Positions 36,223 to 57,922 of a stretch of DNA of 64,000 bases are shown in pieces; position 1 is the first letter of the stretch; every line of letters begins with the position of its first letter. The position numbers and the translations under genes are program-made. The notes below the pieces were generated by a model that saw only the letters and a list, made by a program, of their open reading frames with translations, made no database searches and was not told the DNA's origin. This stretch comes from Owenia fusiformis (taxonomy: Eukaryota), in the NCBI GenBank assembly GCA_903813345.2, contig CAIIXF020000001.1, positions 9,734,001-9,798,000 on the forward strand, in the 5' to 3' direction.

Positions 36223-39200
36223 TACAGGTATTTAATTACCCTGTTTGTAATAGATGTTGCAGCGATTTAATACACATATCAAGGTAATTGAATCATCAAT
36301 ATTGAAAGACAGGTAACATTGTTTCTGAAATAAAATCAGTTAATTATTTAACTCTGATTCACTCTTCATAGAAAGTCTTAGTTCAGAAGGTTAAGATTTC
36401 TCAATTTCAAAGAAAACTGAACAAAATTCTCAATTTTATCCGTGTTACAGTTTTAACTAAATGTAGGAACACCTTCATAAACAGGATCCCACACACAAGG
36501 AATGATTTCTCAGAGAATATAATACAAAATAGAATAAAAGGATTCTGTAGATTCCGGAATTTAAATCCCATTGGATTGAATCAATAAAAATAGTACGAAC
36601 TAATAACAATGTTTTTCACTCATTTTTCACAAGATATAAAAAACATTGTTTCCAATGTTTCTTGTCATGGAATGTGATTGATTTGTACCTAATAATGCCC
36701 CAAGTATTATTAATAACAATAATCATGTCTTAAAGACTTCCTATATTTTCATAAGCAATTTCTATTATACTGAGCTACTCATTGTCAATGTCCAATGTAT
36801 GTTATTCAACACAGGTTAAAATAACTCATATTACATGTGTAATAATAAAGCTATCGACTAGAGAATGTCTTCGAAAACAACCCTTGCTATTTGAATTAGT
36901 CTGACGTGAAATATTATAGAATTCATTGCAATAGAGACCTCTGTACGTGCCAAGTAGTCAATTAGACATATGTGTACACAGCTTGTGTGTATTTCATATA
37001 CAGAAGCAGACAGCAAGGGTCGTGGTGGCAACATACATGTTAAATTAGGGCTTGCCAAGGTTACATACACAAATAGCAAAAGAAACCACGACAAGAGTGA
37101 TATTGGAAAACGTTGCATCTAATTATTTAGTGTATTGACAGTCCATCAAAACTGTAATCTACAATCAATAGCCAGCTTTTAGTTTTGACTTGAATTCCTT
37201 ACAGACTACAGTGGCCTTTAATTGAACGTGATACATAGATCTGCTCAGATATTTGATTTGCTATTAGGATAAAGCAATAACTACTAAAATTGCGGAATAT
37301 CCTAGAACTATAAATTAGGAGGTGAATTAGACATTAAAATCTACATGAAAAATGATCTTAGTTTATGTGTGAGGTTAACATGACCAAAGTGAAACTTCAT
37401 GCACAAATATCAATCTTCTCCCACCCATAGTATCTAGAAACGAGATGATGTCATTTGAATTATTTCCACGATTTTCAATCAATGAATTTCGAAACCAAAA
37501 ATGATCTCCATGACTTGCATACAGAAAAAGAAGTTTTCATGATTGTTGTGATATATATGAACACTGTATAGAAATATTGCAAAATAATGTTAAATGTCTT
37601 ATAAATATTCCAACAAAAATGTCCTAAACCCCAAACTCTCAATACAGTGGCAGTTTTTAACATACCACTGTAGTATGAAGACTACCCCTGCCACTGTGGT
37701 ATGCCAAAAGCCCAATTATGCGGATAATTCATGGACATATATATTATATGAATTAATTCATTTTCCATGATTGCTATCAACTTCTGCAGTTGATACCAAA
37801 TTATGAAAAATGGTTAATTCTTTTACTCACAAATTCAACATGATTCCATAAATAAATCAAGTAAAAATGTATAACAAAGTATGTGAATACATGAAGACGA
37901 TGTGAAGATATTCCAAGTTTTCAGATCATACATTCATTATAAGTTGCTCTATCAGATTATATTGATGCCCAGTAATTAAATACTGTAAAGCTGAGATGTG
38001 CGTGTAATGCAAGAAAGCCAATGATATTGCAGACATTTCAGATAATGTAGAACTATTTGCACAAGTCTATTGTGGAATAGTAATGCCAATAATCCAATAT
38101 GGGGATTCAAACACATTTTCTCTATGTACTTTCCTATTTGCTCTTGCCAATGTCAAACTACAGCCTTCATAAATCGTGGGAAGAAAATTATGAGTTTCTC
38201 ATCCTATATCAAAATGATGATCCCTCTATAAGAGATTAAGGCTTGGAGTGCTAAGGCAAGACCTTTTGAGAATATTTAGGTGGCCCACATGGTACAACAC
38301 ATGTACATATATGTCTACAATATCAATGGCCACTCCCCCATATTTGATACCATAGTGGTTATGCTTAGCTTTAGAGTGATACATGGTTAAGCTTTAGAAT
38401 GATACATGTAAATGACAGAAGAGATCTTAAGACCTTTTAGAGTACAGCTGTTTAACTCATTGCTATTATCTTGACTAACACGCTCTCGTTCGAGATTGAA
38501 ATTAGGTTGATCAAAACCACCATGTTACCAGGGGGAGATTTTATGTGCTAAAGCTGTAGCTAAGCTATTTACATATCAACCTGGAATGCCTTCTTTACAC
38601 AGCCATAATATACTACATCATTCATAATATTATAATTATTTCAATCTCCTACTATGTACAATATGTTCTTCTATATACGGGGCTAGTCAGTATACATATA
38701 CACTATGCACAAGTTATATTTATTCATTAAATTAACCTACTACTCTAGGGAGGAATAAATACCTACGTCCTCGCATTTCTACCGTTTCATCAACTGAATC
38801 CTGATGTTGATGCGTTCATGAGTTTGCTAATTACACTACCAAATATCAATACTGCTTGCAATTAAAGCAACAATTAACATTCAGCTTTAGAGAAACATGA
38901 AAAGTGTGCAATGTTAAAGTGTAAGTTAGTACGAATGAAGCAATATTCCTCTTAGCTCACTCAGCTGTTAGCTATATATTGGGGTCCAGGATCAGGGGTC
39001 CGTTGATAAAACAGCAGAATGGTCTCTATGGTCCTTTTATGTGTTGTCATAGTAACCCACACATTGTGCACATGTTCTGTGAATGTTCATCTCCAATACA
39101 AATTGTACACTCATCCAAAGTGCTAAATCGCTAGTCGTTATAGAGACTATGTTTAAGAGTAGGTAACATCTACAATCAGTGCCATCTTTTAGTTAGTTCT

Positions 39201-39229
39201 AGAGTGATGTCTTATGGCTTGAAGGGATG

Positions 39230-42200
39230 TTAACACTGACATTGCTGGTTCTGTTGATTTGGGTTTTCAGTAAGACGCGTTGTTTTATTTGCACTATTCA
39301 CCGCTGTTGGGTCGGAATCTAAGCTTTCGGACATCTTGTCACAAATGATATCTACGAGTCGCTCGAATACGGCTTTTACATTGATGTTTTCTTTGGCTGA
39401 TGTCTCAAAAAATTCTAAACCTGAAAAATATACTGCACAGAGTTAAGATCCTGAAAATTAGTGGAAAATGCTGATGTGTATATCTATAGTACTATTTTAT
39501 ATTTTAAAATGCATGCCATGATAAGTGCTGCTATTAAATTCAACCAAAAGCATGAGCTACACTAATATATTCTAAGCAAAAGTTGAGCTTTGTGAATAAA
39601 AATGTGAAAAACTATAAACAAATAGATCTATTATATTAAAATGGTATGTGTATAAAAACAAAGCTTTTAATAATCCAAAGCATCTATATTATATGTATAA
39701 TTATATGTACAGTGTCATATCAAAAATAGATCTAGTAAAATCTAGGCATTTAATACTAATTTTGTAAATAAAAATGTTCAACAGTGAATGTTAGTTACAA
39801 AAAAACATTGTTGCTGAGAATTCACGGATTCTACGATCACTTGTGTGTTGATTTATCGCAAACCAAGCATTTGATTTGGCTTAAATTACATTAACATTGA
39901 TTTTTGCATTGCGTGAACCCCTTCAGAGTATGAGCAATATATCACAATGCCAAACGGTCTGAGGGAAATCGCAAGATTTTCCAATAAGTGTAAAGCAGGG
40001 TATCTTATTTGAGACTTAGTTTCCAGGAAATACTTTATTGATTTTGTAGATGGTGTTGTATTTGCCATTGATATTTGATAGAGTGAAACGGGGGCTATTC
40101 TCATGTTAAACCAATCGCATGTTACAATGTTATTGTGAGGCTAACCAATTCAAATATACTTGTACAATTATAGGTAATCTTGAAGACATATTATAAGATG
40201 GCTCAATAAAATGCGAGATGTGCCCAGGGGGTACGAGAAAAAACAAAGAACAATTGCAAATCCTATGTTGAGTTATTGACCAACAATCCATGATCAATCA
40301 AAAATTTCTACACCACTCTATAATTACAATTGTGCAACTTAGAATGCATGGTACTAAAAAAATCAATTTGAGGATCTTATACTGAGCCAGCGTATATGTC
40401 TTCAGTCTTACCCACAAAGACAGGCAAACAGCCAAACGTGTACAGTATAACAACATAATACAAAGGGTGCTCTTCCGCGTGGGTATCAAGCAAAAAGGTT
40501 ATAAAACAAAAGAAACTATGTTTACACATTGAGCAGTACTTGGAAGTCTGATAAGGGTGACAGATTACCAATATCCTCACTATTACAGTTTACAGAATTC
40601 ATATATTATGCCAGAAAACAGATAAAATAATCCGAAAATATCAAAAGAACTTTAGTCCCTATCCCAAATGAGAAAAGCCAAGCCATTATATATGACGATT
40701 TCTATTGGAATGTACTCATAGATCAATAATATGTACTATGCACTATGTGTTTCTGTAAATTATTTATCAATGTACAGTGCTAAGAATAAGGAATCAATAA
40801 CGAAATCAATTATTTAGGCGAAGTCGATATGCAGATCCAGTATAAAATAGGTTAATGGTGATTCCTCTATGGTTAATTCTTTAAATTTTTTTAATGGATA
40901 TAAAATATTTGATAAATAAGATACAATGCCCGCTTGATATTGATCTGATTTACCAGAAACTTGTCAATAAGCAGAATTGGACTGGTATTATCAATTAGAA
41001 AATGCAAGTAGATCTCATCTTCGTTCACTCGACTCCCGTCTGAACGCTGTGAAGACCGAGTGTGCGAAGATGAGTAGATCTACCATAAATAAAATTGATG
41101 CACAAACATCATAATATATGTATACAAAAAATTCTTCAAAGATTCATGTGATTGTAAATGTTTTCTTAATATGACTTCGGAAATAAAAGAAAAAAAATAT
41201 ATATATAAAAAATTATTGGTTAATTTGATGAGCACATTCCAGTACAAGAGGTGATTTTTTTAGAAACATTGCTCTAGGATCAATTTTTGTGTTATAGTAA
41301 CAAAAAATTGAACAAAATCATAACTAAATGAGAGAATTGATTTACTAAATGAATGGATTTGTCAATCTATTCACTCATGACAAAAATGAAAAAAGTGCAT
41401 TTTTGTAAAATATCACCCAAGATATCCTAGCACAACTGATGTGATGAAACATATAAAGGATCCACAGATTAAACATTTACAGCACACAATTTTTTTTCCT
41501 ATTAGCTGATAGATTGTGATCGTCAAATAATGTCATTCTGACACAAGCAAGAGCGTAAAGATCTGAGGAATATAAATCAGCAAATAAACGGTCTATTCTA
41601 CTTGGAACATTTTAATCTTGCCATGTAATTTTGGGATTACATTCTGTCTAATGTATGTGCTGTAAATGTGAAATCTGCTTTGAAGTAATAGGCCTTAAAG
41701 CTAGTTAGAAAATTAGATAAGCATCAAGGAGGCATGTAAAGTCGTTTAAAGGAAACCAGTATAACCTAGAATGCAGGCTCAAATACAGTATATAATGGAA
41801 AAGAAACAATTTGGCCATTTCTATTGAATATGAGTCTCGTATCGTCTCAATCTCTTCCAAAATATGCCCAAAAAATCATAATTTGCAAATACTCCATTGC
41901 AAGAAAAACTGCTTTCATATCAAGTTACTGATATTCTAATTTTGAAATCGCTAATTTTGAAATATGAAGCTCTCATTGGTACAGATGCTGACTTCTCGGA
42001 GGAAAAAGATTTAACAAACAACTGTGCTGGAATCTCAACACAATAGGAGAAAAACATGAGGATGCCATCGAGGTTATAGGTGTGAAGATTAATGAAGACG
42101 CACAATGTCGCCACTTACCTAATTGGTCTGCTAATTGTTTACCCCTCTCAGTGGATACAACTCTTTCATCTTCTAGATCACATTTGTTACCAACTAACAC

Positions 42201-45200
42201 CACCTGTGCATTATCCCAAGAATATGTCTTGATTTGTGTACACCTAGAAACAATACAGAAATAGAGGATGCAGGGGTGACATACATATAGACATCCTACC
42301 TAGCTGGCTGGCCAGTTGTTTACCGCGCGCTGTCGTGACAACACGGTCCTCTTCACAATCACATTTGTTGCCGACTAGTAGCACCATGGCGCTCTCCCAG
42401 GCATACATCTGGATCTGGGTACACCTGAAACACCAACCCAAGCCTGTGCAAGCTGCACCAAGGATATGCAAGCTGCACCAAGAGTGTGCAAGCTGCACCT
42501 GTAAGCTGCATGGAGAGTGTCCACCCAATAGGATAAATAGAGGATCACACAGTACAGTGTCCAAAGGTCACAATGTTTGACAAAGCAAGACTTAAACACA
42601 GGACCAGTAAGTTTATTTTACAAGTTCTGATGAGGATATTTCATCTTTTGTTTTCCTTAGTAAGTTTCCAATGATCTCATGGAACCAATATTGAATTCCA
42701 TGAATCATGAGCTACATATTACTGAAGAAGTAGCATATGATTTCTGTGGCTGTTATCTGGTAGATCAATGATGGGTATAAATGATCTGACATTGAATCAG
42801 ATATCAAACGTTCATTTTGTTGCAATATGAAGCCCTTGGGAAATATACACACTGTACAAATCATATAACTTCACAAGCACAACACAACTTGAACAATGGA
42901 ACAAAACATGCTTCAACGACTGAACATAGGAGGGTACGGGTGGACACGTCCTTGCAGCTTACATTGAAGAAATAATCCTTACACCTGAAAGCCCAGTAGT
43001 AGATTCCTCCACCAGGATAAATAAGCACAGAGTGCTGAAAGATGGCTATTTGATGAGTTTATACCTAATCTATCTGCTAAATCTTGTCCCTGTTTCGTTG
43101 GAACAGCCCTATATTCAGCTTGGTCAGTTTTATTTCCCACAAGTATAACACTGGCATTGTCCCAGGCGTGAGTTTCAATCTGAGAGCTCCTGTTAAGTCA
43201 AAAGCGCATGCAAAAAGATACCACAACATCTTTGAGGGTGCATGTTAAAACAGTATCAAATTTAAAGACCCCATGTAAGGTAAAACGTCATACCAATGCA
43301 TTGCATACATCACATCCAACTCTGTTGTATATTGAAAGAATTAAAAATGGTTGAAAATGAGAAATTAACTCATAATAAGATAGAAAAGATATTTTTTTTA
43401 AATTTTTGTCTTTATTGTGAAACCAAAAGTACAGAAAATATTTAAAACTTGATAGAAAACTCTTTAAAAATTCTGTAACATTTAACGTATGCATAAAAAA
43501 TTGATTAAATAGTATAACATTTACTGTCATTTCTAAGTCATCACAAAAAATATTATGATAATTTAACTTCATTTTCAAACTTTACATGAGGCCTTTGATA
43601 AATTGACATTTTTTACACTGAAGTCTGTATAATTGTTGGTTTAAGTATTAATTTAGAAAAAAATGTTTAGCTAAGCTTTTCATGAGATGCTGTGAAGCCA
43701 TGCATGATTCCCAGCATGACCATTTTAAAGATGACCATAAAACATTCATCAATAATTAGGAGTTCAATGTACTCCCTCAATGTTATTTTTCATGAAGCGT
43801 GACATATGTATAGTGTATATAGATATTAGAACCAGAGTACTAGAATCTGCCAGTGTTTTTAATAAGAGTTAGATTTATCCTCATTGTTATTTAAATTACG
43901 CTGTAAAATTAATAATAAGCATGTATGTTACAGCGTTTATTTCACTGTTGTATGTCTCTAGTATGAAATTGCAAATGTACAGTAAAACGTGTATATGTAA
44001 ACACCTCTCTAATACCTAAACAAATAGCTTCAATATGAAGACTTTACAGGGTGTCAAATAAATATGTTTCTCTAGTTTTAATGTGCCAAAGAACAATTCA
44101 GATATCATGCAGACAAAACAGTTCTGCAACATTGTGGATGTTAAAGCTAAGGGAGAGAACGTATTTATTTGACACCATGTATATGTCAGAATCACACTTT
44201 AATGTGACCACCTTCATATATGAGCAATGCATATTCTGCTGATTTGAAAGATGTACTTTAAAATATAAAACTTTGAGAACAAGCTTTTGATGAAAAGTAC
44301 AGTGGCATTCACTATGAACATGTTTTACTGTATACTGAATGTTACATGTATGATAAAATAAATTGAAGCAAATATTGATTGAATATATGAGTCAGAATCA
44401 TACATAAACATGATAAGGCCTTGATCATTTACAAAATGAAACTTCAATCATTAATTTCTTGTTATTACAGTTATCTGTAAATGCACTGTACATATATGTT
44501 TCTGTATCAATTAAACTTGAGGCAATCCAATTATCTCTCTCAAATTTGTAAGACATATTCACTTTTCTCTCACATTAGTAAACATGTATGGGGGAGAAAC
44601 GAGTAGTATATACTCTGATGAAAACACGGTGCCCAAGTAAAGCTGCGCGCCTACTTAGGCGCGCAGTTTGTTTCGATCACAAACTGCGTGCCTAAGAACA
44701 TTGGATCATTTAAGTTGGAGTCTGTATTTTGAAACGTTATTTAAAGACATTTATCCTGCATTGTTTTCTTGTTCAATGCGCTCATTCTGTGGCGAATATA
44801 CGAATCTTGCAAATACTAGCAAAAACTGTGTGCAAATGAATCTTAGTTTTAAAACATAAGCAGATTAATGGCATTTTCGTCACTGATTTAATTTATACGT
44901 AAATCGATGTAGCACTTTAAACATAAATGACAAATACTTTAGACTCGTTTTTTATTTAATTCCTTACACATTTATCATGTTTAATTCAAAATATTTCGAG
45001 ATAAAACAGATAATCAGGAGATTAAAAAGAAATAATAAACCACAAACTGCGCGCCTATTTTAGCCAGAAATTACAATCTGTGCGCATACACTATTAAAAC
45101 TACATAATCATTGGAATTTCTACAGAGGTACGTGTAGGTGTTTTCGATGTAGCTTTGGAAATTTTGCTTTATGGTCAGATTTTATGAGATTTTCATATTG

Positions 45201-48200
45201 AAAGTCAAAATGTATAATAGAAGTGACAATTAAGTTGGGAACAAAAAAAAACGTTTATTTTCAGATCACCATCTTGGTGGATGGACTCTCATAGTGTTTC
45301 AATTATGGGGTTCTACTATTAGACACATATGTGCCTTGTATGGCGCTTATGTTTTCTAATAATACAAAACAAGCTTGGATAGGCAAGCAGTTTTGAAATA
45401 TTAGGCACTCAGTTTGGGAAATACGAGGGTTGTCCCAGAAGTAATGCACTATATGCTCTAACTTTATCAATAATTGATATTTTTCCATGAAATTTTCAGA
45501 AAATGTTCCTTAGAGACATTTTGATTATTCTAAAAATTTTCATGTTGACTGATAAAACTATATTGATGTTATAATAAAATCAAGTTGGTGAGTTTGGGTA
45601 GGGCGGGGCAGGTTATACAGTCACGTCAAAAGGAATAAAAAATTGAAAATATGAAATAATTAATCAACAAATACCATTTGGTGTAGCTATAAGAAGTATG
45701 CTCAAAAATACATTTTAAGATACTAAATTACTATGAGCACATCCTAGATTTAATGGATGTATATTGCACAGTGTCCCATTTCACATTTTCTCAAAATATT
45801 GCCCTTTGCATGTTATGTACTTTTGATGCCTGTCAGGTCAAACACTCTCGGCAATTTCTTCCACTGTGACTTGTGGAGTTTTTGCCTCCCATGTTTGGAG
45901 TTGTCATACAGGATCAAATCGTCTCTTTTAAATCTCTTCTGCCACCCCATAATTGTAGTTCTATCTGGTATATACTCCTTATATACTTTCTTCATGGTAG
46001 CATTAGTTTTGCGTGACTGTGAGTCCAAGTGAAGTATGCAATTAGGCCATCAAATGCAAGGCCTTCTGTTATCAGGTGAGAATTTCAGCCATTTTTGCAA
46101 TAACTTGACTGCGACTGTATTTGAATTCGTGACTATTGAAATGTGGTATTATGACATCACAGTGCTAAATGTCATTATTCGTACTTGGTTAACATCATGC
46201 TGAATAAATTTAACAATTTCCCAAACATTTTGACCATTTAAAGGAAAGAAATATTAATAAAATAACACTTTAGATCTTTCCATAATTAGAAAAATTGGTA
46301 CCTGCCCCGCCCACCCCTACCTCCATGTTGTTATAGCAACCATATTAAGACTTAATATTAATGTTGGATGCTGAAACTTCAGGATATAATAGATAAAACT
46401 TCAATTGTTATATACACAAAATTTCAGCTGAATTGAAGAATATTAAAGAAAGTTAGAGCATATAGTGCATTACTTCTGGGACAACCCTCGTACATGTGAA
46501 TATAGGCGCGCAGTTTGACAAGAAACATGTTTAAATCACGTTTATGGCGTATTATCGTTTTGAACACAAACTTTGCTGTTTTAATCAGATGGAGTGATCC
46601 TATATATTCTAGCATACACAGACACAATGGCTAAATAAACATTGAGTACTATGAGTAAATTAAGTTCATCTTTACAGAATGGTACTATCTTTAGAACGAG
46701 ACTAACCTTGTATTTTTCGTATTTTGGCTCTTTTTGGGAGTCGTGTCCTCCCCGTCTCACATTTTGAAATATGCGCGCAGTTTGTCAGAGTTTCAAACTG
46801 CGTGCCTAGTAGGCACGCTGCTTGACATGGGCATCGTGGAAAAGGTCCATAGTAATCTTCCATCCAAGATTACGTCATGAAATGTATCATCATTATAAAG
46901 CAATTGACAATATGGCGTACTTTACTTTATTGTCATTTTATCATAGAATTTGAGCTGAGGTGAGAAAAAAATTACCATTCATTCATTTATTCCCAAGGGG
47001 CATGAAATAGAAATAGTCACGGAGGAACTTACGACATCCAAGCTTAGCGTTGGTGGAATAATCATTTAGCCTGGGAGTGAGTGATATACAATATTAGAAG
47101 ATATTGGGCAATAAAAATGCTACAAGGAGTTTTTTCTAATTTATACCGCAGTAAATCATACAAATATTCCCAGTCTGCCTGAGATAAATCTGAATCATTT
47201 GAGTTCAATCTAAATAATTTTGGCCCAATTTGAATGTCTTGATCTCAATGTAGAATGACTTGAAGTTGCATATTTTAACTGAATGACCAGAGCTCAAGCT
47301 GAATGATCTAACCTCCTTAATTTAAAGCCTGTCACATTTGCTTTATGGTGGCTGTACCTTCTTGGATTACTAAGTTTTCATTTGACTGAAAATCAAACTG
47401 GTAAGTGAATATGGGTCTTATGAATTGAATTGAATCACTATATTTCATGCTGGATATTTCTCTCGATTTTGGGAAGCTACAGACGCAGTACATTTGCCAT
47501 AGATCAAATGTGACTGAGGCATTAATGACATCTCATCGTGAGCTGACCTAAGACCAACTGGTTTGAACTCCGCCTGAATATAGTGAAATGTCTTTAGACG
47601 ACTCAGATCCAACTATGTTACCTAAATGACTTTAACCTCAATCTAAAATACTTGAGTTCAGTTTGAATAACCAAGTTCAATATGAATAATTCAAATCCAA
47701 TGTGTTCAATCAGAATTACTTGATCATTCAATGTGAATAACCGGAGTTCCATGTGAATAACAATTTTCCATCTGAATAACATAATTGCTCCATGTCAATA
47801 ACTGGAGCGCTCGTTGAAAGATACGAGCATGAACGAAAAAGCGAATTCCCACACATACAATATACAATTACACTATAGCACTCTTCTTATTATCTAGAAA
47901 CTCAATCAATGAAATGAGCAATTTCTGAGGTTGTACTAACCAATAGATATGAAGTATGCATTGGGCGGAATAGGCTGTTATCATTAATGAACAATGAGTT
48001 ATAGGCTACTTCATTAGGTATCCGCTTCAAATAACAAAATGTCATTACCCAAGATTGCAACATTTTTCTGCTGACTCGGAGTATCAAGTATGTTGAAAGA
48101 AATGGATGGTTGTATCTCTCTAGGGTTGGGAACTTGATCTGATGTGCTTAAATATTGATGGTTTTGTTTTTCATATTCATGAAAGTCAGATGGATAGAGT

Positions 48201-51200
48201 ATTTCGAGGGTTCAACCAGAATAACAGCTAGATTTTTGAAGATTTCTGATGACTCTTCCATATCATTTTCCTATTAAGAATTCAGTGAAAAAAGGTTTGC
48301 ATTATATAACATTATTCATGTTTGATTTGATTTGACTGGGTAGCTCTATCAGTGTAAAAACTGGTATTATGAATTACAATAATTTACAATAGCAAAATGC
48401 CAGATTAAGGGCTTCAAGCTTGGCCTGGTAGTTGGTCTTTCAAACCTGTCCACACATGATGCCAGAATTGCAACCCTACTCCTGCACTTAAGGAATCTAA
48501 GTTAATTAGTCGAATTACTCATCTGACTCAGCCTACATTGAGGAAGATCTTCCAAATCCCAAAACGTCTTGATAAGAGGACAAGTTAACAAAACACAATC
48601 ATTAAAATATATATTTTGTAAGTACTAATATGGAGTGGGAGATAGTGTTAATAATATTGCCATAGATTTCATGATATCAACAATGTAATAATCTAAGTAG
48701 AAGCAGATGGGACTTTCAGATTTCCACCTCCGTATCTACCTACAAAATTCCTCCGTTAAATCATAAGTGAAACCTGAATTATATTCAGATTACGACAATA
48801 ATCAAATATAAATTAATTGACGTATGTTGAATACTCAACAGGAAATCCTGTATATAAATAATAATAAAATAAAAATAATATTTAAAGATGTCATTGTTAT
48901 TAGATATTTCCTGTGATGTCTCAAAGGGAAGGATTAATTTTCTTTCTAGAATAGAAACTTGAAAACACTGAAAGTTCGTCATTTTCGCCGCATTTTATAT
49001 CAAGACTCCCATATTTGTTACATCAGATAGCTTCACTTTATTGATAAACAAGGATCTGAATTTCCACAATGTTTTTGAATCCTGTACTTTTCAGGATGAT
49101 GAACGGTATGTTAAATTATGATTCATCATATTTTGCATAATAGAGCAGTACATGTACATGTATCAGCTATATGATAACAAATTGCTCATTTACATGTTTT
49201 TATAGTAGCAACATACTTATTACAGCTGTTGCATTTAAACAACAGATATTTTTGCAGCTTTCAGAGTTTTTTAAGCAAGCAATGACCAATAATAAGCATG
49301 CTTATTTACTACAATATAATATCATGTTATGTATGACTCTATATAGAATATAGTTATATATGTGTCTTTTATGAGAATATTAAAATGATTTGTCACGTCT
49401 TTGAGTAAAGGTTAGTCATATCATTGAGAACTGAAGGGCAATATTGTTAGTTAGGGCAATATACGGTTCTGGATTCAGACATTTGTGCGTACTTAAAAGA
49501 AATAAAAATTATATGTGCTATATGTATGTGGTATATTCAATCTCAGATATTATGAAGAAGATTAGTTTACAAGGTGCCAAGAACCATTCCAAATGAAACC
49601 GGTAAACCTTGTATTATCCACATAAAAATTAAACACAAGGAAAATTGATATGTTCCTTGATCCAAACAATATAAAACCAAAAACAAATTAAGTACAAATA
49701 CATTATTGAATTTTACACTATTTTTTAAGAATTTCTTATTTTGTAAAACATTTTCACTGGCAAATATGTTTTGTACTTATGACCCCTATGCCACATTATT
49801 GACTTCCTTGGACGTAATACTGTCAGTGATATGAATTTATGGAATGATTAATTCTGATACTGGCCTTGTTTGGGACCAATGTAGCGGGAAAAACGAGAAA
49901 GACATGTCTACCTAATCAGATCATGTGATCAATAAGTAGACGTCAGTGGAAGAAAAACACCATAGATCAATATAAGAAGTCAAAACGATAACTTGAGAAA
50001 GTTGGAACATTCCGTATTTTGTCAACCACAGAGAGAAACTTTATTTTTCTCCAATATATTTGGTCCCATAGTAATGTATACCTACCAATCTTGAACTGCA
50101 TTAAAAGATTCTTCATTGGTAACATCATACATGAGTATAAATCCCATAGCACCCCTGTAGTAAGCTGTAGTTATGGTCCTGTACCTCTCTTGGCCTGCTG
50201 TGTCCTGTAACACAAAACAAAAATGTTACCATGGTTTTGGAAGTACAGTTAAATCTGTCAGATGGAACACCTCTCTGTAGGAAACATCACTCTTAATAGA
50301 ACAGTTTTGAAACTAGGCATTAACATGCAAACACCAAATGCTGAACACCAACCACCAAACACAAATACCAGCTGCGGAACACCAAAAGCCACCACAAAAA
50401 AAGTTGGAAACTATTACAAATATGTCACCACTTGTGGTGATGACATAATGAACCAAATCAGCGCTCTTTGTGGGATTTAAGTGTAATTTTAAGTCTTGTG
50501 AATTATTAGAGGAGCACTTTGATAATATGAATTATTTGGAGGTAATGCAACACAGGGGTTTCAATGTGGGAAGAGCAATGCAAGTCTAATTGCATTCTGG
50601 TATGCCAGAGCCCCTCATATCTGCCGTTCACTTTGGAAGGATAAAGACAAAGGGGGCGAGGCTATCACAATGATCTAATTGACTCTAATTGAAAAAAGTA
50701 ATGGCCCATTTCATTCATATGAGGCAGTCACATAAACAACGCACCTGTAAACTAAATGTAGATCACCTTGACTCTATCATTAAAGCAGATATGAAATGGT
50801 ATTTTTAACCTAAAAGGAGTCAATATAATTTTTTGATAGATGTATTTGGACATGTTTTCTCATCAGTAGTGTGGAAATTATTTTACTCTAACGATCGTTA
50901 TTAGCTGCTTAATAAGCAATATTCGAATTGGTTGTGACTTTATTGGCCCCCACGTGATCTCTCACTGGTCCCCACATGGCCTGTTTTGGTCCATTGGATC
51001 ATGACGTCATAATGCCGAAATGTTTTGTTATTAGTTTACACAACAATCCTATGGTTGCCGTGACGTTGTGATTACTAAGAAACCAATAAACCAAAGCTAT
51101 ATTTTGTATATGACGTTACTAATCACGTGGGGGCCAATTTGATTAATCAGTTAGTTTTATTTCGTTATCTATGACCGTTAGCAGTTATCCTTTAAAGGAC

Positions 51201-57200: not shown

Positions 57201-57922
57201 ACTCATATTACATGAAAAACATAGTCTTGACATTCTGATATCACATCTCTTGTTTACAGAAAACTAATATCTGATTAAACTTAATGTAACTCCCACATTG
57301 AAATCAAGGTAACATATTTTGTGATAGTTAACAAAAGCTAGCAATGGCTAGGCCCGGATCTTATATAATCTTACAGAACCACAATAGTCCTGGTTCAATT
57401 TTTGCTTGACCTGCTAGTTGGTATGAAGCAACTCACTACATAGGGTTTAAATCTGTTGGCCAAGTTTCGAATAAAAGGTTCATAAATTGATCTGGCAAAA
57501 TATAGCATGGGTTACAGATACTGCAATTCAGAAATGCTCAAATAATGTATATATCCATCCATGATGAAATCAATTTTCTCTTATTTGTAATCTACATGTA
57601 CATTACATGAAGTGTAGTACTGTAAATTTATACAGAATTCAAATTAACAGAACAAGATAAAAAGTGCTTATATAAATTTAAAAATTACGGTACTTACCCA
57701 TATTTGTAATTTTACTCGTTTATCCTGTCGGAATACTGTTTTTACTTTGAAGTCAATACCAACAGTGCTTACAAATGCTGATGTAAAAGAGTCATCCGCA
57801 TATCGAAATAAAAATGATGTTTTTCCAACGCTAGAATTTCCTATGATGAGTAGTTTGAACATATAGTCAAAGTTCTGGTCTGCAGCATCCTTCTGCCATT
57901 TACTGTCGTTAGCGGAAGCCAT
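39230..57922 (-). CDS. Rab3: Ras-related protein Rab-3, spliced
   Basis: Exons 57922-57698, 50204-50086, [42424-42300 or 42243-42119], 39420-39230. Motifs [60 protein letters not shown] and C-terminal CQC prenylation motif. The ATG directly follows an acceptor, so a 5' UTR exon lies further upstream, probably outside the window. Confidence 0.97.
42119..42243 (-). CDS. Rab3: Rab3 exon 3b (canonical: [41 protein letters not shown])
   Basis: 125 nt, TTTCTAG acceptor, GTAAGT donor. Confidence 0.93.
42300..42424 (-). CDS. Rab3: Rab3 alternative exon 3a ([41 protein letters not shown])
   Basis: 125 nt, TTTCAG acceptor, GTAGGA donor, same phases as 3b, open frame with NKCD retained. Confidence 0.82.
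44625..46838. mobile_element. Non-autonomous Transib/RAG-like element
   Basis: Ends CACGGTGCCCAAGTAAAGCTGCGCGCCTACT and (reverse complement) CACGATGCCCATGTCAAGCAGCGTGCCTACT; GAAAA on both flanks (44620-44624, 46839-46843); subterminal CAAACTGCGYGCCTA repeats. Confidence 0.72.
45424..46490 (-). mobile_element. Deleted mariner element nested in the Transib-like element
   Basis: TA|CGAGGGTTGTCCCAGAAGTAATGCACTATATGCTCTAACTTT perfect TIR at both ends. Internal minus-strand remnant [37 protein letters not shown] (45813-46028) resembles the mariner transposase HTH and GRP linker. Confidence 0.88.
47190..47800. repeat. Degenerate ~20-21-bp minisatellite (TGAATRAC..GAGTTCAATC-like)
   Basis: Recurrent TGAAT...AGTTC motifs at about 20-21 nt spacing, clearest at 47640-47800. 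Confidence 0.5.
50784..51707. mobile_element. Foldback MITE with ~400-bp TIRs and TTAA TSD (Kolobok-like)
   Basis: TTAA|AGCAGATATGAAATGG...CCATTTCATATCTGCT|TTAA. Arms near 50784-51190 and 51300-51707 are near-identical reverse complements. Confidence 0.9.
51999..52137. mobile_element. Short palindromic MITE
   Basis: TAATGCTGTGGTCACATTTG...CAAATGTGACCACAGCATTA plus an inner inverted pair CCCAGCCAATGAGTATTTT / AAAATACTCATCGGCTGGG. Confidence 0.8.
52760..53592. mobile_element. TIR element with CAG...CTG ends (hAT-like ends)
   Basis: CAGCGCTTGCATTA...TAATGCAAGCCCTG with AGTGTA on both flanks. Confidence 0.6.
54541..56638. mobile_element. Non-autonomous Mutator-like element (MULE)
   Basis: GGTTATAATGAAAACACGCGCTACGCGCTAACGCGC TIRs; 9-bp TSD ATTCAAATC (54532-54540, 56639-56647). 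Confidence 0.85.
55734..55856. mobile_element. Small TIR element nested in the MULE
   Basis: CAGGCCCGTAGCCAG...CTGGCTACGGGCAAG flanked by CCCCCACAAC direct repeats. Confidence 0.75.

Follow-up and report, generated by a model that had tools for sequence, protein, structure and literature searches.

Between the mutually exclusive exons 2 and 3 of alpha-tropomyosin, the intron leaves too little room for joint use of the 5′ splice site and the branch point, and the Rab proteins RAB6A and RAB6A′ are distinguished by three residues and one effector. Rab3, a molecular switch in neurotransmitter release, occupies a central place in the regulation of synaptic vesicle and dense-core granule release, and invertebrates are usually treated as animals with one Rab3 protein. 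We analyzed a stretch of 64 kb from Owenia fusiformis (contig CAIIXF020000001.1; hereafter the window, meaning the whole stretch), which carries a Rab3 gene on its minus strand and for which an earlier note, made from the sequence, had proposed two mutually exclusive versions of Rab3 exon 3 with Rab6A as a precedent. That precedent holds, and RAB37 provides another: according to the consulted parts of two papers (PMC8373072, 10.1101/2023.04.29.538821), the RAB6A/RAB6A′ and RAB37 isoforms are products of the alternative splicing of tandemly duplicated exons. For RAB37, the same parts of PMC8373072 place the residues that differ in a surface patch and the shared ones in the interior, and describe the event as conserved between vertebrates and invertebrates.

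The Rab3 gene of the window carries a real cluster of three versions of exon 3, which follow one another along the gene as 3x, a long intron, 3a, a short spacer, and 3b (Table 1). All three are of equal length and equal phase, and each has its own AG acceptor and GT donor. The earlier note had described two 125-nt exons of the same phase with intact splice sites, 56 nt apart, and a direct reading of the minus strand agrees with it, as do the translations of both exons; its count of two versions was too low, as the third copy, 3x, had been overlooked. We located 3x by a local tblastn of the window, with the exon peptides and fetched Rab-3 proteins as queries, after which the sequence was read, and a repeat finder independently grouped the three copies as one 130-nt family (42116-42245, 42297-42426 at 70%, and 43062-43191 at 60%). 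The strongest splice signals of the three versions belong to 3b, which combines a long, strong pyrimidine tract (cctctatttctgtattgtttctag/G) with a gtaagt donor.

The reading frame allows only one version at a time. When exon combinations were spliced in silico, any single version gave an open frame of 219 amino acids (aa), whereas any two versions or all three led to a stop after residue 172 and none at all to a stop after residue 119, which corroborates the frameshift that the earlier note had predicted for the inclusion of both exons or neither. The exon spans residues 116-156, that is, the end of helix alpha3, the alpha3-beta5 loop (RabCDR2), strand beta5, the guanine-binding NKxD motif, and helix alpha4. 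Each of the 41-residue peptides matched positions 95-133 of the Pfam Ras family above the cut-off of 21.6 bits (37.7, 31.6 for 3a, and 29.5 for 3x), and 18 of the 41 columns are invariant among 3x, 3a, and 3b, VGNK.D included.

Table 1 Features of the Rab3 gene in the window (exon/intron boundaries marked by a slash).
Feature	Position	Strand	Description
Rab3 coding exon 1	57698..57922	-	ATG at 57922, 75 codons, G1 motif GNSSVGKT, ends ..QIW/gtaagt
Rab3 coding exon 2	50086..50204	-	DTAGQE (G3, switch II) to ..NAVQD plus 2 nt of the Trp115 codon
Exon 3x	43065..43189	-	125 nt, 'THAW' type, G4 NKTD; acceptor ttaacag/G, donor TTAG/gtataa
Intron 3x-3a	42425..43064	-	640 nt
Exon 3a	42300..42424	-	125 nt, G4 NKCD; acceptor tttcag/G, donor CTAG/gtagga
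Spacer 3a-3b	42244..42299	-	56 nt
Exon 3b	42119..42243	-	125 nt, canonical, G4 NKCD; acceptor ttctag/G, donor TTAG/gtaagt
Rab3 last coding exon (E4)	39230..39420	-	CQC prenylation motif; stop codon 39232-39230

The identity of the gene as Rab3 and the positions of the exons flanking the cluster (end of exon 2, E2, at 50086 and start of E4 at 39420) could be read directly and are as the earlier note gave them. The protein carries the motifs expected of a Rab3-subfamily small GTPase, namely the G1 P-loop GxxxxGK[ST], G3 DTAGQE, G4 NKxD, and a C-terminal CxC. Exon 1 matched Pfam Ras with 56.7 bits and shared 100% identity with the N-termini of Rab-3 in Lingula and many molluscs; exon 2 ends in the donor GATTG/gtaggt at 50086; and the best matches of the last exon were Rab-3 C-termini, with identities of at most 89% (the top one from a bivalve). 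The spliced 3b protein (219 aa) was 95.9% identical to Rab-3 isoform X1 of the nemertean Tubulanus, its best full-length match, and 93.6% identical to Biomphalaria Rab-3; these matches are those of a spiralian (lophotrochozoan-type) invertebrate. When compared with solved structures, Biomphalaria Rab-3 matched Rab3C, Rab3B, fly Rab3, and Rab3A with E-values of 1e-119 to 1e-101 and Rab8A with 1e-65, and the spliced window proteins and their nearest relative (P0016) likewise matched the solved Rab3A, Rab3B, Rab3C, and Rab3D structures best.

Relatives of the cluster were gathered by two protein searches, with exon 1 and the last exon as the respective queries; together they retrieved 207 proteins, 133 of them containing an exon-3 segment. 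The canonical form (KTYSWDN) was the only one in 108 of these segments, three were minor canonical variants, 20 held only an alternative form, and two held both. This alternative form, the 'THAW' type with His at position 7, is thus carried by 22 of the 133 records, which comprise sequences of 18 mollusc species (a chiton, bivalves, and gastropods from several orders) and of the brachiopod Lingula anatina, plus two further records. Twelve of the 22 are titled 'isoform X2' or 'X3', among them those of Haliotis rubra, Pecten maximus, Saccostrea echinata, Pomacea canaliculata, Liolophura sinensis, and Lingula (all X2). The alternative segment replaces the canonical one over the same 41-residue span, starting exactly after ..VQDW. 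These putative isoforms were found only as database records and in no paper.

The gene models of Nucella and Batillaria hold both forms, and in both the alternative precedes the canonical segment, in the same order as 3x before 3b in the window. When the 41-residue segments were placed in a tree (17 alternative, 16 canonical, and the three window exons), the alternative ones split from the canonical ones with a support of 95/94, and 3x came out on the alternative side, nearest to Lingula; 3b is identical at 41 of 41 residues to the Rab-3 of Biomphalaria, Tubulanus, and Tegillarca. By this comparison, 3x is the local counterpart of the old alternative exon of molluscs and a brachiopod. The evolutionarily established alternative exon is 3x, whose type is annotated in 18 mollusc species and Lingula, and not 3a, the alternative version of the earlier note.

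Two features of the mollusc records are worth describing in their own right. In heterobranch snails, the alternative exon has diverged strongly and another residue stands in place of the Asn in the NKxD motif (SKSD, SKCD, HKCD), as seen in the records P0014 (Physella acuta X2), P0007 (Biomphalaria pfeifferi), and P0009 (Elysia marginata); isoforms with this replacement may bind nucleotide differently. In Elysia marginata (P0009, P0143), one Rab3 gene is seemingly split in two, with exons 1 and 2 and the alternative exon in a model named 'Rab-27A' and the canonical and the last exon in one named 'Rab-26', likely a mis-annotation caused by the tandem exons.

The version 3a is homologous to 3b and intact, as the earlier note had stated: the two are identical at 86 of 125 nt and 28 of 41 residues, with no indel and no stop, and NKCD is retained in both. 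The proportion of synonymous differences (pS) between them is 0.78, which is saturated, against a proportion of nonsynonymous differences (pN) of 0.19. Half of the conserved residues (14/28) are encoded by different codons, and the 13 replacements are mostly conservative (D/E three times, S/T, S/A, V/L, and N/S among them). Exon 3x is more distant from the other two copies (66/125 and 73/125 nt) than these are from each other. Outside the exons, the intron flanks of the copies were no more similar than expected from shuffles (337, 325, 495, and 318 of 500 shuffles scored at least as high as observed), with the sole exception of an 11-nt match (TTTCAGGTGTA at 42980-42995) that was reached by 4 of 500 shuffles and is too short to interpret. 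The low pN beside a saturated pS, the lack of any indel or stop, and the dissimilar flanks uphold the purifying selection on 3a that had been suggested before, and, judging from these counts, 3a has clearly been under long-term constraint.

The composition of 3a leads to the same question from another side. Its GC content is 0.55, with 0.61 at third codon positions (GC3) and seven CpG (observed/expected 0.75), compared with 0.38, 0.27, and no CpG for 3b. The introns around have a GC content of 0.32-0.40 and a CpG observed/expected ratio of 0.00-0.65, and a GC content of at least 0.55 is reached by just 0.41% of the 125-nt windows of the 64 kb. A neutral relic in such an AT-rich setting should have turned AT-rich and broken, and 3a is neither; this evidence excludes 3a as an old dead duplicate, though not as a copy whose use was lost recently. 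As a separate observation, the synonymous differences from 3b to 3a are nearly all changes from A or T to G or C. The G/C-rich synonymous sites of 3a point to selection on RNA or to a GC-rich origin.

Seventeen sequencing runs matched sampled words, none of them on record as RNA; five, among them X1 and X2, contained at least 0.97 of the words and 12, X7 included, 0.31, and four runs (X1, X2, X7, and X20) were mapped on positions 39000-50400; the tissues of X7 and X20 are not on record. X1 and X2 had no splice joints and covered introns as deeply as exons across all 30 bins, and are therefore DNA-like. In X7, one 1170-nt contig joins E2, 3b, and E4. X20 provided stranded RNA as raw reads (some 12% of the run, with joints listed from at least three reads) and contained 14 junction reads for E2-3b and 18 for 3b-E4, at a depth of about 32-38x on E2 and E4 (E4, 31.7). 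Its joints lie at 39418/42117 and 42241/50084 with a 2-nt ambiguity, consistent with the exon ends of Table 1. Because of the X7 contig and the junction reads of X20, 3b is the default version. Of the junctions by which the earlier note had proposed to distinguish the two isoforms, those of 3b (50086 to 42243 and 42119 to 39420) were thus recovered, while those of 3a were not among the joints listed for X7 and X20.

The residues encoded by the cluster lie on a surface with a known role in partner binding. In the consulted parts of PMC4552854 and PMC9308819, WDN124-126 of fly Rab3 form the alpha3-beta5 loop, RabCDR2, which together with CDR1 and CDR3 lines the pocket taking the SGAWFF motif of rabphilin. 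The Rab3 protein of the window has the same numbering as fly Rab3 (Trp124-Asp125-Asn126), so that exon 3 does encode the alpha3-beta5 loop of the RabCDR pocket, as proposed in the earlier note. Version 3a changes K120Q, T121M, S123A, D125E, and N126S plus eight residues further on, and 3x changes Y122H, S123A, and much of alpha4 but keeps WDN. These changes in RabCDR2 and alpha4 make a different partner choice plausible, and the isoforms may accordingly differ in effector preference, as had been suggested. The SGAWFF motif is well conserved in rabphilins and less so in RIM-I and RIM-II, as far as the consulted part of PMC7456537 goes; any effect may therefore be specific to rabphilin-type partners.

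Most likely, the three versions form a three-way set of mutually exclusive exons, and the choice among them varies the RabCDR2/alpha4 surface. In the explanation that we favor, and that we consider probable as a whole but well short of certain, exactly one of the three versions would be included per mRNA, any other outcome giving a frameshift and an early stop. The 56-nt spacer is likely too short for joint use of the 3a donor and the 3b branch point, which would enforce the exclusivity of 3a and 3b. Comparable spacers of 34 and 49 nt are implied by the read-through models of Nucella and Batillaria (P0032, P0045), values derived from the 12 and 17 intervening residues of the gene models instead of from DNA. 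Between 3x and 3a, the 640-nt intron is too long for steric exclusion, so that frame-dependent decay, probably, or another mechanism would be required for this pair. Beside the default 3b, 3a would most likely be confined to a particular cell type, stage, or condition, and the odds somewhat favor its present use as a coding alternative. Common to the three proteins would be the GTPase core and the switch regions; they would differ on the RabCDR2/alpha4 surface, which could alter partner binding.

Several observations weigh against this explanation. No 3a or 3x joint was present among the joints listed (the best 15 of 51, X7 and X20), of which the two 3b joints were the only ones in this gene; in X20, 3a stays below the three reads from which a joint is listed, and the depth over 3x was 0 in both data sets. 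The X20 bin with 3a and 3b had a depth of 8.06, equal to ~25x over 3b alone, so that no contribution of 3a is needed, and X7, one of the 12 runs with 0.31 of the words, holds 3b only. The polypyrimidine tract of 3a is weak and G-rich (ggcttgggttggtgtttcag/G). In the tree, 3a falls on the canonical side on a long branch, and its placement with the alternative group was not rejected by the approximately unbiased (AU) test (p = 0.56); the tree thus does not decide on the copy that gave rise to 3a. Of the 133 exon-3 segments retrieved, none proved to be a counterpart of 3a (best, 29 of 41 residues), a word search of longer proteins with the 3a peptide gave no candidate, and a metagenome scan with a 48-residue in-frame read-through including 3a gave six loci at 38-50% identity and no counterpart. 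On the functional side, the consulted part of PMC4552854 describes that the fly substitution WDN124-126AAA did not disrupt the assayed Rab3 function at the neuromuscular junction, and RabCDR2 may matter little for some Rab3 functions. Two of these sets of observations are less telling than they appear. The protein database lacks the Rab3 of this animal itself (best C-terminal match, 89%), so the blanks of the 3a searches carry little weight. Likewise, the counterparts of 3x are annotated in mRNAs elsewhere and yet 3x is equally silent here, which makes the silence of 3a weak evidence against it.

A different account of the same data would be that 3a is a relic, an exon that was functional for long and is no longer spliced into Rab3 mRNA but has not yet acquired a disabling mutation, with 3b and perhaps 3x remaining in use. 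The presence of 3b junctions only in X7 and X20, the weak pyrimidine tract, and the failure of the searches to find a counterpart in other species would all fit such a history. However, 3a has no stop, indel, or splice-site lesion, its GC content of 0.55 and its seven CpG are far above those of the introns, where neutral sequence should drift the opposite way, and the RNA sample consists of two data sets in which 3x is equally silent. We therefore regard a relic as unlikely, although it deserves to be kept in mind.

It could also be imagined that 3a is a regulatory 'poison' exon, whose inclusion with 3b, or the retention of the spacer, would lead to an early stop and lower the amount of Rab3. 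The stop after residue 172 upon double inclusion and the very short spacer (56 nt) would agree with this role, but a poison exon has no need of a protein sequence, and yet 3a, with saturated synonymous sites and mostly conservative replacements, keeps 28 of 41 residues, NKCD, and a Ras match above the Pfam threshold; moreover, no RNA joining 3a to 3b was found among the joints listed for X7 and X20. This makes a poison exon very improbable. Finally, that the tandem copies stem from faulty assembly, or from the collapse or expansion of a repeat, can be practically dismissed: no observation spoke for it, DNA-like contigs from two other studies span the arrangement unbroken (X2, one 1010-nt contig, 41548-42563; X1, 41951-42340) and the copies, 69%, 58%, and 53% identical at the nucleotide level, are too diverged to be confused in assembly.

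The introns around the three versions contain further elements. A near-palindromic 20-nt unit (TGCAAGCTGCACCAAG..) is repeated ~3-4 times at 42447-42523, 23-99 nt upstream of 3a, and a 15-nt pair with 93% complementarity links 42500-42514 with about 42949-42963, 434 nt further upstream, in addition to one 12-nt pair. The repeat region upstream of 3a folded no better than shuffles (z = 0.15, with 109 of 200 shuffles at least as good), and this RNA structure was consequently rejected as evidence; docking/selector pairing of the Dscam type would require complementary intronic sequences that are conserved and pair one selector per exon with a docking site. The 11-mer at 42980-42995 mentioned above (tttcag/gtgta) resembles an acceptor and is identical to the 3a acceptor with the first exon bases; its ag lies ~75 nt downstream of 3x, and no recognizable exon follows. 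It could be a cryptic site or the remnant of a decayed copy.

Farther away, the intron between exon 2 and 3x harbors a multi-copy repeat at 43950-47760, where the depth of X1 and X2 is in the thousands, compared with ~5-50 in most of the neighboring single-copy bins. This repeat is read on both strands in X20, shows a recurrent 1069-nt deletion joint (45421/46491) in all four runs, and holds three open reading frames only (78-97 aa) of no obvious identity; it is probably a non-autonomous mobile element. Elsewhere in the window, two Walker-A motifs, GRNGVGKT and GENGAGKT, lie at about 11725 and 17966 on the plus strand in separate exon-like stretches, which suggests that Rab3 has as its neighbor a gene for an ABC-type ATPase with two nucleotide-binding domains.

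The earlier note knew of no description of such alternative exons in Rab3. For the literature searched, this stands: no description was found (the supplementary tables of PMC8373072 and PMC7456537 not being covered), and the word-start matches to 'Rab3' in the tandem-exon paper PMC8373072 are RAB37. For public annotation it does not, as molluscs and Lingula already have annotated Rab-3 isoforms of the THAW type, and the principle is for that reason not new for Rab3. Automated annotation thus already contains a conserved Rab3 splicing event on which the literature searched yielded no paper. What is new here is its recognition as an old and widespread spiralian feature, together with the third version, 3a.

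If the proposed use of the cluster is right, two or three Rab3 proteins would exist in molluscs, in brachiopods, and in this animal, and minor Rab3 isoforms may have been overlooked in the mollusc models of neurobiology. The isoforms would differ precisely within one of the three regions by which Rab-effector specificity is set and would amount to a natural experiment on RabCDR2 and helix alpha4. Tentatively, and with more doubt than confidence, we propose a broader view in which spiralians diversify a single Rab3 through an ancient cassette of exclusive exons, at least as old as the mollusc-brachiopod ancestor and expanded to three versions here, with the isoforms acting in different secretory cell types with different partners (rabphilin versus RIM-I/RIM-II). 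By splicing, such a cassette would provide what the Rab3A-D paralogues provide in vertebrates.

Compared with the known systems, the locus is closest to the mollusc and Lingula THAW exons, which share with the window 3x the gene, the exon, and the span, and group with it in the tree. The window 3x nevertheless retains WDN where most mollusc and Lingula alternative exons have WSN, and the window has the additional version 3a, which these alternative exons match at no more than 26 of 41 residues. RAB6A/RAB6A′ and RAB37 are also Rab isoforms made from tandem exons, but they belong to other subfamilies and have two versions instead of the three found here. With exons 2 and 3 of alpha-tropomyosin the cluster would have in common a gap probably too short for joint splicing, 56 nt here, and steric exclusion of that type cannot cover the 640-nt intron between 3x and 3a. 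Finally, vertebrate Rab3A-D resemble the present case in offering several Rab3 proteins with a conserved core; however, their diversity stems from gene duplication and extends over the whole protein, whereas in the window it is confined to one 41-residue cassette of a single gene.

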